DNA of 63,970 bases, the filler included, from Sanchytrium tribonematis (taxonomy: Eukaryota): NCBI GenBank assembly GCA_018985235.1. It is 5 parts of 5 records of this genome, joined end to end, with 100 filler letters (N's around TTAATTAATTAA, not from the genome) between each part and the next. Parts side by side here need not be neighbours in the genome. Positions count along the whole stretch, not along the records: positions 1 to 13,323 come from JADGIG010000191.1; 4 more parts are not named here. One strand, written 5' to 3'. A program made the translations under genes and the position numbers. The notes below the pieces were generated by a model that worked only from the letters and a program-made list of their open reading frames with translations, was not told the DNA's origin and did no database searches. This document shows positions 2 to 53,602 of the stretch, piece after piece; position 1 is the stretch's first letter, and every line of letters begins with the position of its first letter.

Positions 2-424
2 TACTGATTTTGGTACTTTTTGCAAATTGTATTTTGATTTCCAAGCAGATGGCAACACAGCAAATGACCCATATCCTTCTGTATAGAAAAAAGTGAAAAA
101 TGCTGTTTGCATGGAATTGTTGTACACGTCATTTGCAATACAATTTGGTCCATGTTTCACACCTTGTTTCTCAACAAAAGCAGCCTTGATCATTAGATAA
201 TGGCATTTCAATTTAATCATATAATTCAATAAAGTGTTAGTCATGTAGTCCATTTTATCCCCATTTTCATGACATTTAAGAAGATCAACACATTCACTAG
301 ACAACACTTCAAATGAGTTTAACATGGTTTCATTGCCATTATCTGTCATATCAATAATAGAATGCTGAAGAAGAACAACAATAGCACAAGTGTTTTGAGC
401 AGGATCGCATCCGATGATGATCAT
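2..424 (-). CDS. RuvC-like / poxvirus A22 / Ydc2-type Holliday junction resolvase, 3'-truncated by the window edge
   Basis: Manual translation (absent from ORF track): MIIIGCDPAQNTCAIVV...AAFVEKQG...AVLPSAWKSKY. It shows the N-terminal hhxhDP motif, the hhExQ motif and the PxxWK motif. 141 codons without a stop, with an in-frame TAA just before the ATG. Confidence 0.7.
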   Translation of the reverse strand, partial: MIIIGCDPAQNTCAIVVLLQHSIIDMTDNGNETMLNSFEVLSSECVDLLKCHENGDKMDYMTNTLLNYMIKLKCHYLMIKAAFVEKQGVKHGPNCIANDVYNNSMQTAFFTFFYTEGYGSFAVLPSAWKSKYNLQKVPKSV

Positions 425-2509: not shown

Positions 2510-4203
2510 CTAATCCCATAAGTCAAAGCAAAAGAACAGTACTAGAATATACCCATTTGGCTCTGTTGTTTCAAAGATTATCGAACAGCAGTGGCATGAT
2601 TCAGATGATGTTTCGTGCAGTAATCTTGCAGTTAATTGTACATTTCTAATGCTTTCTAAATAAAATTGAATTACATTGCCATAAAATTCGTATGAAATTG
2701 AGAGTAAATCATCTTTGATCACTCGTTTTTGGTCATCATTGATGCCATTTATTCTGGCTAAATTTACGGCATTTAATATTTATTTCAAACGTATCGAATA
2801 TACTTTGTTGTATTTACATTCTGGTAAAATTAGCATTTTTTAATGATCCAATCTAATCATGTCTTTAAATCGTTTTATTTATATTGATTCCTCTTTTCAT
2901 AGTACTTATAAAAGGTGTATTCCTCTTCCAATTCCATTGGAACCATTTTGTATTGATGGCATGTGCATGTTGGCGTATCCAATTATGATACTTTTTAATG
3001 TAAATGAGTTGGTGAGCTCCGAATAAATGATAGAGAGAGAATGCATCATTCTAGGGGAAAAGAGAAAACATGTCCATCGATTTTGACATCATGGCAAACA
3101 GTACTGTTTGAATTAATTCGACTTATATTATTGATGCCTGTTTTTATATATACACATTGAAGATCAACTTCGTGTGTAAACCGAAATTTGTTTTGCGAAT
3201 ACCTTAGCAAGCGGATACCTTTCTTCATTCATTTGATACTCTGTCAAATGCATTTTATCAGGATTGTGATTTTCCACTAGCGATCTGAGTTCTGTTTCAA
3301 GGCTCCCATTTCGATTTCCACGGCAATTGTAGGAAATAATATCAAAATTATGAATTTGATCTGCCACAAGGTAGTCTGTCAGGATATCACCATTACCACC
3401 TCTTATCCTGACTTGAATTTCTATATTTGTTGTCCATTAATCAATAATAAATTCATCAGTAATCAATTTTGATCCATTTAGAATTTTGGATTCCATCCAG
3501 TTAATGTTTGATATTCTATCATTTATAAAGTTTCGGACATCTGTCAGTTTACAATGCTTGTGGTAATAAAAAGGGTATGTTTTTCCAGTATCCATCTTGA
3601 TCCAGAGAAGATTTTCTAGTTGCTTTTTAGTTTGAAGATGTAGAATAGGTAGATTCATTTTTGATATGATTAGTGTCTGAAGAGAATCTTTTGCGCTTTA
3701 AAGAAGGGGACCATAGTAAATCATCATTAATTGATTTGGTTTTGAATCTCCTCTTCTCTAAATTAGATTTGAAATACGCGTCCAATTCAACAGAATATTC
3801 AACAGTGAGCTCAACAATCTGCTCTTTTGGGATATTTGCTAGAATGCAATCTACTTCAATAGGTTCTCGTTCTCCACTTGGTAGAATGATGTAAATGCTC
3901 TTTATATTTGGCGAGGTGATTTCGGGTGGAATTTTACACTCAATCATCGTTTTCAAGATGCTTTCATTTAAGGATACGGATATCCTCAAAATTGTCCAAA
4001 TTTTGGTCATTATAATCAATAGGGGAAGGCAAATCTGTTTCAGCGTCTTTCAACAAAATATCGTTACTAAAGATGTCAGAGTTACGTATAACAATATTGT
4101 TTGCTTTGTTTTTATCAGTTCTATCTCTAAGATTGTGTGTATTGCCAGATGTTTTTTCAAGCGCGTTTTTATGCTCTTGAAGGGCATTTGAAGAACTAGT
4201 CAT
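2510..4203 (-). mobile_element. Degenerate non-LTR retrotransposon 1: ORF1-like region, ubiquitin-like domain, APE endonuclease and possible C-terminal zinc-finger remnant
   Basis: IISYNCRG...NPDKMHLTE (APE start), SIIIGYAN (GDFN-like) and RLDH. UBL at 3395-3613 ends RIRGG. CHCC..ET at 2510-2722 resembles the LINE C-terminal Zn motif. Many stops and frameshifts; no RT seen. Confidence 0.65.
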
Positions 4204-4563
4204 GGGAATTTAGACTCCATGCGTTTCATACAGTTTAGTGAATACAGTTAATTCGTATATGGGGATCCAGCCTATCAAGTGGGTCAATTTATAATTTCTC
4301 CATATAAGGGCACAAAAAAAACCAGAGCAATGGCATTATTTTATACATGCATGTCATCATTCAGAATATGTGTAGAATGGGGATTTGGTAAGGTGGTAAT
4401 GGACTGGGCATTTCTTGATTTTTACAAAAATCTAAATATAAACAACCAGTGGCTAAATTGTATACTGCTGGAGTGCTGTTATCAAAAATTAGATCATGCT
4501 GCTACAATAATCAAAGATTTTAAGCATTTGGTATTCCTGTTCCGTCAATTCATTCTTATTTAA
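4202..4563 (+). mobile_element. PIF/Harbinger transposase (DDE_Tnp_4) C-terminal fragment
   Basis: YGDPAY..ISPY..MSSFRICVEWGFG..WAFLDF motifs; disrupted. Confidence 0.85.
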
Positions 4564-4604
4564 ATAAATAATTTATTTATTTACCAATTTTTCATTTTAA
4601 ATGA

Positions 4605-4925
4605 CTACCACATGTCTCTCATCAATGCATTTTCTTGCTCTTTATTGATGGCATTCTTTACATCTACTTCCACTTTCTTTTCTTCAATCAAGATTCGTTT
4701 TTCATCCAATTCAAGTCTTTTTTCTTTAATTGCAACTTTTTTCTCGATTTCTCCCAAAGTGGTCAGGTCAAAAATATCTCTACCGTATTTGGCCGGATGG
4801 AACGGTACCATTCTATTCATCATTTTGATAATCAGATACCATTGTAATAGGGTATACCGCCTTATTAGAACAGTGTCCACTTGGAGTCGACGCGATGGAT
4901 CATGAAAAAATTGACTTTGTCCCAT
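4605..4925 (-). mobile_element. Probable Harbinger second-ORF remnant (coiled-coil tail)
   Basis: EKRLELDEKRILIEEKK charged coiled coil, convergent with the transposase as is typical for Harbinger elements. Confidence 0.45.
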
Positions 4926-5184
4926 TGGGTCAAAATTTGACTATAGATGAGCAAAGCAACCGGAAATTAGGTCTCAGAAAGACTACAAGGAACTATTGCA
5001 AATCAACTCGAATATTTCAAGTAATGCGCTTCCAGAGCTAATGTTTGATAAAACAATTAATAACCCTGACAATGATACAAGTAGACCCAAATCTTTTGAT
5101 GTTACCGTTATAAAATAAAAAGTAAGAACTAGATACATAGATGATGTTAAAAGCAACCCATCTTTACATTCTCTCCTTTTAAAG

Positions 5185-7311
5185 TTGAAACAAATTCATT
5201 TCACTTTTAGTTGTAAAAATGTTATGCATTCTGAGCCTGCTACCATTGAAAGCTCTATTGTTGACCAATCAATTATTCATATTGGCTGCACAGCTGATTT
5301 TCGTTTGCCAGAGTTCCATATAAAGAATGATGTAAAGCTATGTAATTGGATAGCACGTATGTCCTTTTTGGATGTTTCAACAGAGTCATGGAATCAAATA
5401 ATTTCACCAATGGAAGCAAAATGGCAAGCACTATCTATTAATGACACCTTTAAAACGAATAATGGCAAATAAAAATGTGTTACAGGCGTAAAAGAAATTG
5501 ATGATATATTTGGTGTTGTAATTAGACATTGCCGTTCCAATCAGTTTCAAATTAAAGTCCCAATCATCCCCAAATTGATTGACTTGATTGATTCAAAAGA
5601 ATTAGAAAATGTTTTAGATGGTAAACATTTCGGAAAAATTCATTTATTTAATCTCATCTTCACAGATGACATTTGGAATCATAAAAATCAATTGAAAGAT
5701 CTATTTATGAAGTGCAAAGTCAATGTGCCTTTCTTCAGACAGTTAAAGCACCGCGAAACAAAGGAAAAAATTTTTATTGATGACAATTGACAGAGAATTA
5801 AAGAATTCTGCAAATTGGGTGCAATCTACACAAATGCTAATGAATGTCAAAATCAATCAAATCGATTCAAAAGATTGCACCAAGTTTATACACTTTGAAT
5901 CCCCCAATTTTATGACCTTTGATGGACATCTTCTACAGATTCACAGTATTGCTAAACAAAAAGAATGCCACCAATTAGTGGTCTCAAAAATAGTTGCTTT
6001 TCAACTATTTGATTACATTACACATCTGACGATTGGATTTTATTTAAATACTTTTCGAAAGCAATTGCAACATATAAAGAATGAAATTATGCGCAAAATT
6101 ATTGCAAATACTAAAATTCTTTCCGTCGTCTCCACTGGAATTAGAACCAATACTGCAATTGACCGAGACTCCCCTGATATCCCAATGGCACCCTAGAAGT
6201 ACCTAAAGAGTTTGCAATCACATTGATGCTTTACAGCGATTTGAGTGATCAAGCATTCAGCTGAACTGTCTGAACTGTCCCTCTTACTGTCAAAAGCTCT
6301 ATCTCTACTTTAAAAAATGTCTTAAGTGACAAATTACCAATTTCTAAAGAATTACTTCAAATGGACGCATTATAGTGACTGAAAATTGTGTAATGTCTAA
6401 AGTGATTGAAAGTCAATTATTTAAAGTGACTCTGGTCTGCTCTGTAGAATATATCTGGTTAATCTGTTCTCATTTAGAGGTGAAGAGATGGAGGAAGATG
6501 CAGAGAACTACAAAATAAATTGATTCCTTCATCTCTATCACCTCTGGGGTTTAAATTGATTCCTCCATCTCTATCACCTCTGGGGGTTTAAATTGATTCC
6601 TTCATCTCTATCACCTCTGGGGTTTAAATTGATTCCTCCATCTCTATCACCTCTGGGGGTTTAAATTGATTCCTTCATCTCTATCACCTCTTAGAAATAC
6701 ACCAATCATTTCCCCAGCAAGCAAAAGAATTAAATATTATCCCATAAAAAAGAGACAGATTTTTGTCACAACGCCAAATCCCTTGTTCTACAGATTAATT
6801 ATGAAATCACTCTTGAACAACTAATCAACCAACAGAAATTATACTGTCATTACTTTCCATACTCGCTTTATAAATACATGACAAATTAATCTTGTCTTTA
6901 CCCTTAGAAAGTAATTGACTCCATGTTTAATCATATTACAATTTCCAAAAGATTAGAAGGAGGTAGTGCTGTACATGAGTCAGATCAAAACATTTCCACT
7001 GATTGCACATTTGCTGACTCTCTTGGTGTTTTGGAGATCATTCAAGGATACATTCCTCCCTAAATTCCGACCATTATCCAATACTATTTCGATTGCTTTT
7101 AACAAATTCTATATCAATACTACGTCAAATTAATTGGAATACACTTCGCTTCGATCGACATGACCGTGAAAAGGTTGTAAACTATCTAGAAACTAAATTT
7201 GGCGAAATCCTTCTTCATTCAACCGATATGACCAGTGATGAACTATTTAGACACTTTTCGTTTGTCACATTCAGTGTTGGGGCCAAAAATTCTTCCAAAT
7301 TTAAGTTTTAA
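5185..7311 (+). mobile_element. Degenerate non-LTR retrotransposon 2: broken upstream ORF, ubiquitin-like domain and APE C-terminus
   Basis: Broken long frame at 5185-6196 (membership inferred). UBL at 6756-6964 (RQIFVTTP/KSLVLQINYEITLEQL...NHITISKRLEGG). NSDHYPILFRL at 7063-7095 is the APE terminal SDH motif. Confidence 0.55.
6516..6691 (+). repeat. Tandem repeat, about 4.8 units alternating 36 and 37 bp
   Basis: TAAATTGATTCCT(T/C)CATCTCTATCACCTCTGGGG(G)TT starting at 6516, 6552, 6589, 6625 and 6662; no spacers. Confidence 0.95.
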
Positions 7312-7484: not shown

Positions 7485-8280
7485 TCGTGTCCCTCAGTGG
7501 AATCTTTATAATATGGCATAATTCTTCGAATATTCACAGATTCCACTTCTCCATTTTCCTTTTCAATTTTAACACATTTCGACTTTTCAATTCAATAATT
7601 TTATAGGGTCAAAACCATCACTTAGAGAATTTGGTCTTTTTAATTGGATTTTTCAATAAAACCAAATTTCCAACATTGTACTTGTGATCAATTCTGTTTG
7701 CATTTTCTTGATTTAAATTGTACAATTTCAATTTCTTATTATCAACATTTTTCTTAGTTATTGGCAAAGAGGGTAAAACCATATCCATTCCAAACACTGC
7801 ATTTCCTGGCGTGGTGCCTATACTTGAATGGTAACTAGATCTCATAATCCAGCTAATGGCTGGTAAATGTAGATGCCAATTAGTCAACCCCTTTGTCCTT
7901 AAATGTTCATTTACAAATCCATGACTTCTTTCACAAATTGAGTTGTATTGGGGATTGCAGCTTGTGGTGTACATGTGACTTATCTCAAAACTTTTCAACA
8001 ATTCTTCAAATTCATTCCCTAAAAAGTTGGAACCTTGATCTGTGATGACAAACTTCGGGCGAGGGTATTTGCAAATCCAATTCTGATCAAACATTTTAGC
8101 AACAGTTTTCCCAGTAGTCTCTTTAAGCGTGATGAGTTCTACTAGTTTAATTTTAATGTCTATAATGCTCAAAATATACTTGAATTCATTTCCATCTGCA
8201 TTTTCAATGTCTTCTTCTGTCAAATCTTCATCACTTATAATTGAACCAATGATATCATAAGCAACTACTTGTAAATTGCC
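7485..8280 (-). mobile_element. Ty3/gypsy-type integrase (rve) relic
   Basis: VAYDIIG (D1), ITDQGSNF (D2), NSICERSH (E), TPGNAVFG and a degenerate GPY module with stops. Confidence 0.85.
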
Positions 8281-8569
8281 GATATTTTTATCAATATCCC
8301 CTAATGGGGTTTTTTGGATTGTTGCAATAACATCAAGTTTTGTATTCTAATCGATAAAAAACTATAGTAAAAAAAAGGTGAAGCAATTACTTGATATTTT
8401 AACGGTATGATAGTAATGGCTATCTACACTAACTGGGATATATCCTCAATGTCAGATAAAGTCCCCCGTGCGGGACTTGAGTGAGTAATTACGAAAGTAT
8501 ACTCAACTCCCCCCCCATATTTTCAGAATGTCAATAACTAATTACTTAATTCATATATTTATTTTATTT

Positions 8570-9030
8570 TCACCAGTTAAAATTAATGGTTTCTTGTGAT
8601 TCAAATCGAGGAACATTTACATCAAAAATTTTCTCATCTTCATCAAATTGTGCAGTTTCAAACTCTTCTGCAGTCATTGAGTATGTTGTTCCATTTAATA
8701 ATGCATTTACAACATTAGACCAAACTGAAATGTGCTCAAATGATGCAATAAACTGTTTTTTCAATAATCTCAGGAGTCACTTTTGCCCATTCACAGGCAA
8801 TCCAGTCTCTTAATTTTACAATTCCTGGTTTTTGGAAGACTTTTGGTTTGTTTCGGTTTGCTTGAAATTCATCAACTTGTTCCTCATAGAAGTTTAAAAT
8901 TGATTTTCGAATTCTTGCTTTAAAACTCTTAATCAAACCAACTTCTGCAAGTTGACAATAACCTATTGTTCCTGCTGGAACTTTAATAACTTCAATTTTC
9001 TTATTCTGGAAGTATGATTCAATTTCTGAT
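8570..9030 (-). mobile_element. pogo/Tigger DDE_1 transposase C-terminal fragment
   Basis: VPAGTIGYCQLAEVGLIKSFKARIR (PxxxTxxxQPLDVG..K.FK-like) and W..VTPEII; frameshifted. Confidence 0.75.
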
Positions 9031-9031
9031 C

Positions 9032-9218
9032 TAAGGTTACAACATCTAGTAACTAGTATTAGTAATTAATTGACTTTTTCAGAATTTAGAAAACTGGTTA
9101 CTAGATATTTACGTCAAAATACTACTTAATATCTAGTAACCAGTTACCATATATGAACAAATGAATTTTTAAAATCCATATAATTTTTTTTTTCTCACTC
9201 ACTAGCTTGTTAACCTTA
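9032..9218. mobile_element. MITE-like element with imperfect terminal inverted repeats and an internal 18-bp perfect inverted repeat
   Basis: TAAGGTTACAACATCTAGT (9032-9050) versus reverse complement TAAGGTTAACAAGCTAGT (9201-9218). Internal inverted repeat at 9092-9109/9128-9145. Abuts the truncation point of the pogo fragment. Confidence 0.45.
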
Positions 9219-10399: not shown

Positions 10400-11625
10400 A
10401 ATCTTGACAACGTTAAATCAACTGACGAACTCTCAATGGGTCAATACCAAGAAAACATTCATAAACATTTTGTATTTGTTAAGAAGTAATTTAAATTTTT
10501 TGCTAAAGGAAAATGAACAGAGCCTGATAAATCAACGATTTACAACGAGCTTTGAATGGGGCTGCACTAATGAGATTTATTTCTTTCGAACCTCAGCAAA
10601 CTTTGGTAAACGTCATGCAACTGATCAGTCCCGTTGTGAGATGCTTCATATATTTGGTCCTCATTCTTATTCCGGATTTACTCCAATCTTTTGGAATATG
10701 CCCAGCGAAGTATGAAACAAAAAAGAGATTATTTATTATAGATATGGAATTTGTTGGCAAATATTTAATTACCATTGCTGGAACTATATTACCACAGGCT
10801 TTTTTTGGACATTGATGTGCCTTAATTCAAATTTGATTTTTTTACGAGTAAAGAGTCTCGTAATATCCTGTTTTGTTTGTGCTTTTTCTTCCGTGGTCAA
10901 TACATGTTGATTACAATTATGTCTAGTATATTTAAAGTGATTGGCTTGATGTTCTATCACATCTTTGAGATTAGAAAAAAAGCATTTATTTTATTGGTGT
11001 TATTCTTTATTGTACACAACATTATTTGCAAGATCATTCAGTATTATAAGTTGTTCCTGATAGGTTTTTCTTTCAGCAAATTTGTTGTATTCTGTTGCTA
11101 ATTGTCTAATTTGACTTATTAGTAGCATTTTGCGACTTTTGGTAAATACTTCTTGAATATTTTTTTTGTTTAATCTTTATAAATTAACTAATATTTAGTG
11201 CGAGTAGAATGAGGAGAATGTGGCTTATTATTAATAATACCAAGAGTTGTTCTTTCTGCTGTTAAAATGCAGTTTTTAAATGTAGTATTTATTAGACCGG
11301 GATTTGAATCGTCAAGTAGAAGATCAGATTGTTTTGTAATTAAATCATGTAAAGCAACTCGGATTTTTTTGGAAAATGCATAAACTTTCAATTTCACAAT
11401 TAAGGAGTGGGGATTCAAATTTAATTGTTATTGGAAAGTGGTCACTTGTATAAATATCGTCATGATGTAATTATTTTCCTTAGTAATCGATGAAGGACTG
11501 TCATGACCATGTTTGCACTTGTAAAGAATCTCTATGAGATCCTCAATAAATTCATTTTGTACCAACTGAATGATTTGAAGTAATTTTTCCACCTTTAAGT
11601 CATGCTTTGTGGATGATAATATCAA
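10400..11625 (-). mobile_element. Degenerate non-LTR retrotransposon 3: APE end and RT N-terminus
   Basis: TSDHFPITIKF (SDH at 11438-11446) and KKACG...VIKYLP...NNLF...GHIPKDW (RT domain 0/1). Confidence 0.7.
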
Positions 11626-13323: not shown

Positions 13324-13423
13324 NNNNNNNNNNNNNNNNNNNNNNNNNNNNNNNNNNNNNNNNNNNNTTAATTAATTAANNNNNNNNNNNNNNNNNNNNN
13401 NNNNNNNNNNNNNNNNNNNNNNN
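13324..13423. other. Artificial contig linker
   Basis: 44 N + TTAATTAATTAA (stops in all six frames) + 44 N. Confidence 0.98.
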
Positions 13424-26737: not shown

Positions 26738-26837
26738 NNNNNNNNNNNNNNNNNNNNNNNNNNNNNNNNNNNNNNNNNNNNTTAATTAATTAANNNNNNN
26801 NNNNNNNNNNNNNNNNNNNNNNNNNNNNNNNNNNNNN
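26738..26837. other. Artificial contig linker
   Basis: N44-TTAATTAATTAA-N44. Confidence 0.98.
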
Positions 26838-40124: not shown

Positions 40125-40224
40125 NNNNNNNNNNNNNNNNNNNNNNNNNNNNNNNNNNNNNNNNNNNNTTAATTAATTAANNNNNNNNNNNNNNNNNNNN
40201 NNNNNNNNNNNNNNNNNNNNNNNN
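40125..40224. other. Artificial contig linker
   Basis: N44-TTAATTAATTAA-N44. Confidence 0.98.
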
Positions 40225-53502: not shown

Positions 53503-53602
53503 NNNNNNNNNNNNNNNNNNNNNNNNNNNNNNNNNNNNNNNNNNNNTTAATTAATTAANNNNNNNNNNNNNNNNNNNNNNNNNNNNNNNNNNNNNNNNNN
53601 NN
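53503..53602. other. Artificial contig linker
   Basis: N44-TTAATTAATTAA-N44. Confidence 0.98.

Follow-up and report, generated by a model that had tools for sequence, protein, structure and literature searches.

LINEs normally begin ORF2 at the endonuclease and make their proteins from separate frames, and to our knowledge they are not thought of as processed polyproteins. The family described here shares with the APE-type LINEs (LINE-1 ORF2p; Jockey, I, CR1/L2, and RTE) the APE, the linker, the RT with YADD, and the C-terminal CCHC, all in one ORF. Unlike theirs, its APE is not N-terminal but comes after two predicted ubiquitin folds and a Gly-Gly (GG). Dualen/RandI elements carry Josephin, and NeSL carries Ulp1. 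Helentron carries an OTU (accessible part of PMC6431247). These elements likewise borrow from the ubiquitin system, plausibly for processing, but what they carry is a protease, whereas this LINE family carries a substrate tag, with no protease found in its full-length ORFs.

Host-type domains within element or viral polyproteins have several precedents. CR1/L2 elements with a PHD likewise fuse such a domain in frame upstream of the APE, in some cases within one ORF, but the PHD is a histone reader and, unlike the domain at issue here, has no GG site; the word "ubiquitin" is absent from that paper (PMC4120745). Burro giant LTR retrotransposons of planarians likewise have a Ubi2/SUMO-like domain (PF11976) in their polyprotein. 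They differ in belonging to the LTR class, in carrying their own protease, and in holding the domain among MATH and BCL-2-like domains, and neither GG nor cleavage is mentioned in the accessible part of the source (PMC6431247). In cytopathogenic pestiviruses, ubiquitin likewise lies within the polyprotein and frees the enzyme behind it, cellular ubiquitin hydrolases cutting the captured ubiquitin from NS3; as the accessible part of the source describes it, near-intact ubiquitin was captured recently there, strain by strain in single strains only (PMC8310069), whereas the LINE domain is old, family-wide, and strongly diverged, with cleavage predicted. Fubi-S30 and the ubiquitin-ribosomal fusions likewise have a diverged UBL with GG on a basic nucleic-acid-binding protein, but as a host gene with the UBL at the very N-terminus; Fubi-S30 is cut by USP36/USP16, and Fubi, 36% identical to ubiquitin, resists most human deubiquitinases (PMC10611586, accessible part). 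PDB 6a44, an R1 endonuclease-ubiquitin fusion, is not a precedent, as its ubiquitin follows the endonuclease and the construct looks engineered. A LINE with a UBL-GG-APE layout was not found in the literature searched, in agreement with the sequence-only reading from which this work started; Repbase Reports and subscription reviews lie outside that search, and a prior mention is possible. The main text of PMC5718144 and PMC6416283 does not contain the word "ubiquitin."

The window copies and their setting

The window, by which we mean the whole stretch of DNA analyzed, comprises 63,970 nucleotides, filler included, from Sanchytrium tribonematis (GCA_018985235.1). Copy 1 within it is a dead, 3'-truncated copy of an APE-type non-LTR retrotransposon (Table 1). 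The sequence-only reading had quoted from the minus strand a single frame with one internal stop, in which a ubiquitin-like domain ends in RIRGG and an APE starts about 20 residues later. We recover this frame, which runs from 3616 to 3167 and is interrupted by TAA at 3437-3439, with RIRGG at 3409-3395 (the GG at 3400-3395) and the APE start motif IISYNCRG beginning at 3340, 18 residues past the GG. The fusion to a LINE APE noted there is confirmed; beyond what that reading saw, the copy has no RT and is broken off at ~2877, ahead of the APE SDH motif. The closest protein, P0001 (EukProt set, Sanchytrium tribonematis; PF14529 at E 2e-7), is 90% identical over 62% of the query. Over the APE the two are 66% identical in 207 aligned positions, and by tblastn the match runs down to ~2870 and no further.

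The limits of copy 1 are where contigs of run X1 diverge from the window, at 2877 and 4230 (the 5' limit is approximate). The indels of the copy 1 APE are seen against these contigs: one, of depth 113, carries additional bases at the window's frame changes at 3223 and 3056. The TAA is private to copy 1, a lysine codon standing there in both P0001 and the depth-113 contig. High-depth contigs of the same run depart from the window at 3628 and 3664, flanking the break between domains 1 and 2; unlike in broken copy 1, the two domains share one ORF in P0002, P0004, P0007, P0013, P0018, and P0026. The depth of 113 compares with 9-27 for window-identical pieces, and depth is not taken as copy number. 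At the 5' end, the leader is out of frame with domain 1, and it resembles the P0007 start only weakly (56 of 2000 shuffles score as high), as does the ORF start in a second comparison (26 of 2000). A basic patch similar to KRKRF, by sequence a possible nuclear localization signal, lies ahead of domain 2 in four of the six relatives tested.

Table 1. LINE features in the window (positions count along the whole window; the domain 1 score is from a profile built without the window row)
Feature	Position	Strand	Evidence
Copy 1: leader, ubiquitin-fold domain 1 (predicted), basic patch, domain 2 with GG, most of APE	2877..4230	-	tblastn of relatives
Probable ORF start (ATG 4203) and low-complexity leader	3964..4203	-	translation
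Domain 1, C-terminal two thirds; predicted beta-grasp, helix at end, without GG	3756..3962	-	23.8 bits, iE 1.3e-8
Basic patch KRKRF, candidate nuclear localization signal	3684..3698	-	sequence
Break between domains 1 and 2: stop and frame change	3629..3663	-	translated frames differ
Domain 2, ubiquitin-like, ends RIRGG	3395..3613	-	profile and fold model
Gly-Gly, predicted cleavage site (cut after 3395)	3395..3400	-	invariance in relatives
Linker, 18 residues, predicted disordered	3341..3394	-	spacing from GG to APE start
APE endonuclease, frameshifted near 3223, 3056, 2921; ends before SDH	2877..3340	-	match to P0001
Copy 2, long form of the same LINE family, decayed	5119..7308	+	ORF pieces, domain 2, and APE end
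Copy 3, remnant of P0013/P0029-type sub-lineage: APE end, linker, RT start	10668..11470	-	tblastn E 5e-27 to P0029

Three collinear ORF pieces of copy 2 match P0007 (0, 2, and 1 of 500 shuffles as high). Its domain 2 (6767-6964, plus strand; 12.0 bits, iE 5.9e-5) ends in RLEGG, and an APE end with SDH lies at 7063-7308 (+), most of the APE core being deleted; domain 1 leaves weak traces (E 0.02 and 0.11). An exact 73-bp tandem repeat of ~2.4 copies (6516-6691) sits between domains 1 and 2 of this copy. The window copies are without 3' ends. With three remnants on one 13-kb contig and its proteins spread over at least 12 Sanchytrium contigs, the family is both dispersed and multi-copy.

The contig at 1-13323 is crowded with transposon remnants and gene-free; a contaminant origin for it is unlikely. 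The GC content of the window, ~33%, agrees with the 34.6% of the Sanchytrium tribonematis genome (PMC8371127), and with P0001 as closest protein the host is likely a sanchytrid, a tiny fungus parasitic on algae; the accessible main text of that genome paper has no occurrence of "transpos," "repeat," or "ubiquitin." A Harbinger-like remnant (4252-4940), in which a DDE_Tnp_4 fragment (+, E 0.0014) faces a small coiled-coil ORF (-), adjoins copy 1 at its 5' end, near 4230. Pfam matches also mark an integrase core (rve, E 1.5e-7) at 7618-8346 (-) and a pogo-type DDE_1 remnant (E 1.3e-6) at 8736-9065 (-). Past the break of copy 1, the sequence at 1511-2878 has matches among further, diverged X1 contigs, of which one carries 456 additional letters at 2771; it is probably part of another repeat. 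An ORF at 2-424 (-), which runs off the contig end, resembles by eye the motif of a RuvC/poxvirus A22-type Holliday junction resolvase (PHROG 1770 at E 0.029; no Pfam match); unusual for a fungal contig, it may be left over from a virus-like element. The window is a concatenation of contigs of ~13.3 kb, nearly equal and successively decreasing in length, with N spacers at 13324-13423, 26738-26837, 40125-40224, and 53503-53602, so genes after 13423 need not neighbor the LINE copies. Judged by eye from the ORF list, 13424-63970 holds dense, seemingly intron-poor housekeeping genes, including Cdc48/p97, midasin, SRP54, Aurora-like and CDK7-like kinases, and pirin.

Relatives and placement of the family

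A phmmer search with P0001 against 1.84 billion representatives gave 25 matches, of which 21 belong to the family (by inspection, short fragments included) and four (P0019, P0021, P0023, and P0024) are ordinary LINE endonucleases. An RT search started from P0013 gathered 67 proteins: the query, four further members (P0029-P0032; 55-59% identity), and 62 distant LINEs (22-30%). Eleven non-redundant members reach the site upstream of the APE, seven from Sanchytrium tribonematis (P0001, P0002, P0003, P0004, P0010, P0018, and P0029) and four from other contigs (P0006, P0007, P0013, and P0014/P0026); the remaining family proteins begin downstream and are uninformative. Other searches added nothing: a word-index search of longer proteins, queried with P0001 1-300, yielded 0 of 974 candidates, the metagenome scans 328 and 27 pattern matches with none confirmed, and the viral contigs 556 with none confirmed.

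Intact copies of the kind that the sequence-only reading had called for do exist. Single ORFs join the GG, APE, RT with YADD, and CCHC in P0004 (1260 aa), P0013 (1302 aa), and P0029 (1952 aa), with RVT_1 at E 1e-33, 6e-29, and 5e-28, respectively, and the C-terminal knuckle C-x2-C-x8-H-x4-C in all three. The APE catalytic motifs (N, E, GDxN, SDH) occur with PF14529/PF03372 matches in P0001, P0013, and P0029, and the motifs are present in P0004 too. A Helentron-type APE was rejected, because the relatives carry an RT instead of RepHel. P0007 has ~470 extra residues ahead of domain 1, a region that copy 2 matches in order, so that long and short forms of the family exist. Cys/His residues are common to P0007 90-460 and the window at 5119-6193 (+). 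This long N-terminal region, an uncharacterized domain, has no match in Pfam, PHROG, or PDB and may be an ORF1 equivalent; the region in P0007 does not match that of P0029. Only a short leader is present in four of the six relatives having both domains, and hence the N-terminal piece, if released, is not plainly an ORF1 protein.

In a quick IQ-TREE analysis the eight family RTs come out together on a long stem (SH-aLRT 100, stem 1.5) as two sub-lineages, branching from an open fork and outside the L1-like, RNase H-bearing, and other groups. The tree has 63 rows, eight having been dropped beforehand (partial P0003 and seven near-copies of P0038). Its 55 non-family rows are labeled from domain content and include no named fungal clade, P0081 and P0085 are labeled L1-like without a zf-RVT match, and long stems mislead. 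L1 ORF2p is the best PDB match over the APE and RT (E 3e-25), and only 5 of 52 other LINE proteins with a located APE have at least 60 residues before it. The family is possibly a new clade of APE-type LINEs.

Two predicted ubiquitin folds and the Gly-Gly tail

By its profile, domain 2 is ubiquitin-derived. Searched with a profile of ten domain 2 segments, PDB returned ubiquitin chains as 59 of the top 60 rows, with Fubi not among the 60. The best mono-ubiquitin rows align profile 2-73 to ubiquitin 2-76, end to end, at E 0.002-0.03; we use these single-ubiquitin values, the far lower ones of polyubiquitin rows being sums over repeats. When each segment was left out in turn, nine of ten beat all 2000 shuffles (for the partial P0006 segment, 1 of 2000 shuffles reached its score), and the window domain, one of the nine, reaches 35.3 bits, a score equaled by 0 of 2000 shuffles and well beyond chance likeness. 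Identity to ubiquitin is about 15-20%, and single sequences detect little: a search of Pfam with the window copy matched 0 families, a phmmer search of PDB with it matched ExoIII for the APE start (E 0.24) and not ubiquitin, and Pfam ubiquitin was matched by 0 of 10 single members. None of the 62 other LINE proteins from the RT search scores on the UBL profile (best E 0.09).

Fold models also point to the beta-grasp that the sequence-only reading had proposed to check. Folded from the single sequence with X at the stop, the window domain is predicted as beta-beta-alpha-beta-beta-beta at a mean pLDDT of only 57, with ubiquitin as its top Foldseek match (E 5.5e-4, TM 0.55) and a middling VIA Z of 6.8. 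In the model of P0018, folded with 12 rows, domain 2 reaches a pLDDT of ~85 and residues 218-289 align with a ubiquitin-like chain at VIA Z 9.9 (rmsd 1.9, 70 aligned residues).

The same model shows that the single UBL of the sequence-only reading needs company. A ubiquitin-like domain ending in GG stands, but there are two predicted ubiquitin-fold domains, the other lying upstream without GG. Domain 1 of P0018 is predicted as beta-beta-alpha-beta-beta-beta at 48-133, then a helix (48-146 in all, pLDDT ~75-88), and a disordered linker of ~70 residues in the model separates it from domain 2. The predicted beta-grasp of domain 1 comes from the whole two-domain model and its di-ubiquitin alignments: the best Foldseek matches are di-ubiquitins spanning both domains (E 3.7e-6), and VIA aligns di- and tetra-ubiquitin across 47-290 (133-140 residues). 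In leave-one-out scoring, 0 of 1000 shuffles is as high for each of the seven rows in which domain 1 occurs (six relatives and the window); the domain was not detected in P0029. An hhalign comparison of the domain 1 and domain 2 profiles gave a probability of 0.07, on a poor alignment. Domain 1 has no GG and runs into the helix.

The GG itself is as invariant as the catalytic residues of the APE. Exactly one GG lies in the 150 residues before the APE start in 11 of 11 members reaching the site, 14-102 residues from the APE. In an automatic full-length alignment it occupies the same two columns in all ten non-redundant rows, P0029, found later and keeping GG as well, not being among them. Over P0004 150-520 (columns filled by at least eight rows), invariance outside the APE is confined to G275 and G276; inside it, N301, D467, and SDH do not vary. 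Mean pairwise identity is only 22% in domain 2 (6.5-54%, 45 pairs), against 38% for the APE and 48% for the RT. The expectation that family members have the UBL is borne out for most; P0029 keeps the GG, but its UBL is missed by the profile (the 80 residues before the GG score 2.1 bits, with 258 of 2000 shuffles as high). One could suppose that a ubiquitin gene was captured once and rides as a neutral passenger, its GG kept by shared descent. All rows fall in one clade and so represent one origin, not 11, and the window copies are dead, as a passenger would allow. Against this, GG is unchanged in a domain at 22% mean identity and with RTs at 36-64%; the frame is open through domain 2 in all intact proteins; and 5 of 10 domain 2 codons changed between the window copy and the high-depth contigs are silent, where silent sites are ~1/5 of the total (small numbers). 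We regard a neutral passenger as highly improbable, and as largely refuted already.

The rest of the tail is conserved in part. The LRLRGG-like ending proposed at the outset is right as to the GG, and as to RIRGG in the window copy, but the family tail is mostly [RK]-x-L-G-G, similar to the Leu-Gly-Gly tail of Fubi. A basic residue stands four places before the last Gly, the position of ubiquitin Arg72, in 10 of 11 members (P0029 has Gly there and keeps GG), and the Arg74 position is Leu in seven, Arg in two, Cys in one, and Pro in one. Proline after GG blocks ubiquitin-type cleavage, and it directly follows the GG in 0 of 11. In eight of 11 the following residue is Ala, Ser, or Thr, N-termini that are stabilizing under the N-end rule; as would-be new first residues they are a weak hint of processing. 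The linker after the GG is predicted to be disordered (pLDDT <50 at P0018 291-313), and this together with its variable length argues that packing on the APE is not what keeps the GG.

Domain 2 might instead remain uncut and serve for docking or as a decoy, aimed at the proteasome, Cdc48 cofactors, or a deubiquitinase, with the GG as a flexible hinge or as bait for the active-site cleft of a protease. The low identity to ubiquitin fits such a role, as does the Arg74 position, occupied by Pro or Cys in 2 of 11, and there are parallels in the PHD before the APE of some CR1/L2 elements, for which the accessible part of the source suggests no cleavage (PMC4120745), and in the internal Ubi2/SUMO-like domain of Burro (PMC6431247, accessible part). 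A hinge, however, needs no two exactly placed invariant glycines and basic residue at -4 when the linker length varies sevenfold, and docking would conserve the surface, not the tail. Uncleaved UBL domains usually lose their GG, and domain 1 serves as an internal control, with the same predicted fold and the GG absent where it is not needed. We consider the uncut module unlikely.

A predicted release of the endonuclease-RT

On these sequence comparisons, the family appears to be a real APE-type LINE with a new architecture, its processing site predicted and well supported. We think it probable that a host ubiquitin-type protease cuts after the GG and frees the APE-RT. One polyprotein would be made, comprising the N-terminal region, two predicted ubiquitin folds, GG, APE, RT, and zinc knuckle; a host enzyme, which we infer to be a deubiquitinase or related UBL protease, would recognize domain 2 and cut after the GG; and the released APE-RT would act as an ordinary ORF2 protein. 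The purpose would be to obtain two proteins from one ORF, perhaps with an aid to expression and a new N-terminus, as in the ubiquitin- and Fubi-ribosomal protein fusions and the pestivirus polyproteins. This reading is suggested by what selection seems to have kept, namely the tail (basic -4, GG, no proline after) and neither the surface nor domain 1, and by the retention of GG in 11 of 11 members and in copy 2 while domain 2 diverged so far. Pfam finds only APE and RT, and no protease, in P0004, P0013, and P0029, which together with the pestivirus and Fubi precedents also counts for cleavage by a host enzyme. Counting against it are the low identity to ubiquitin, given that Fubi at 36% is already resistant, and the mostly Leu Arg74 position, the P0029 exception, the failure of any of ten members to match Pfam ubiquitin, the single origin shared by all 11 rows, and the short leaders, which leave little resembling an ORF1 protein to be released from four of the six two-domain relatives.

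If the cut does occur, the N-terminal two-UBL piece would be left with a free GG, and it might then be activated by a host E1 and attached to host or element proteins as a transposon-encoded modifier. Two predicted beta-grasp domains with the GG on the second recall the layout of ISG15 or FAT10, two proteins that VIA ranks near the top for domain 2 (Z 9.6 and 8.9) on a par with other UBLs, and the basic residue present in 10 of 11 corresponds to Arg72, the residue read by E1. The domains are nevertheless ~70 residues apart and not head to tail, the surface outside the GG is poorly conserved, unlike that of real modifiers, and no E1, E2, or E3 domain was found in the full-length ORFs (P0004, P0013, and P0029). 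Protease recognition alone would account for the GG and the basic residue, and a modifier seems to us quite unlikely.

Should cleavage by a host ubiquitin-type protease be correct, this would be the first non-LTR element, within the literature searched, to use the host ubiquitin system to release its enzyme, and a host pathway would gain a switch on retrotransposition. Were the modifier reading true as well, a new LINE clade would encode its own nuclear two-domain UBL and write marks on the host proteome. The family is in addition a set of natural, very diverged ubiquitin variants, informative on the minimal needs of the protease.
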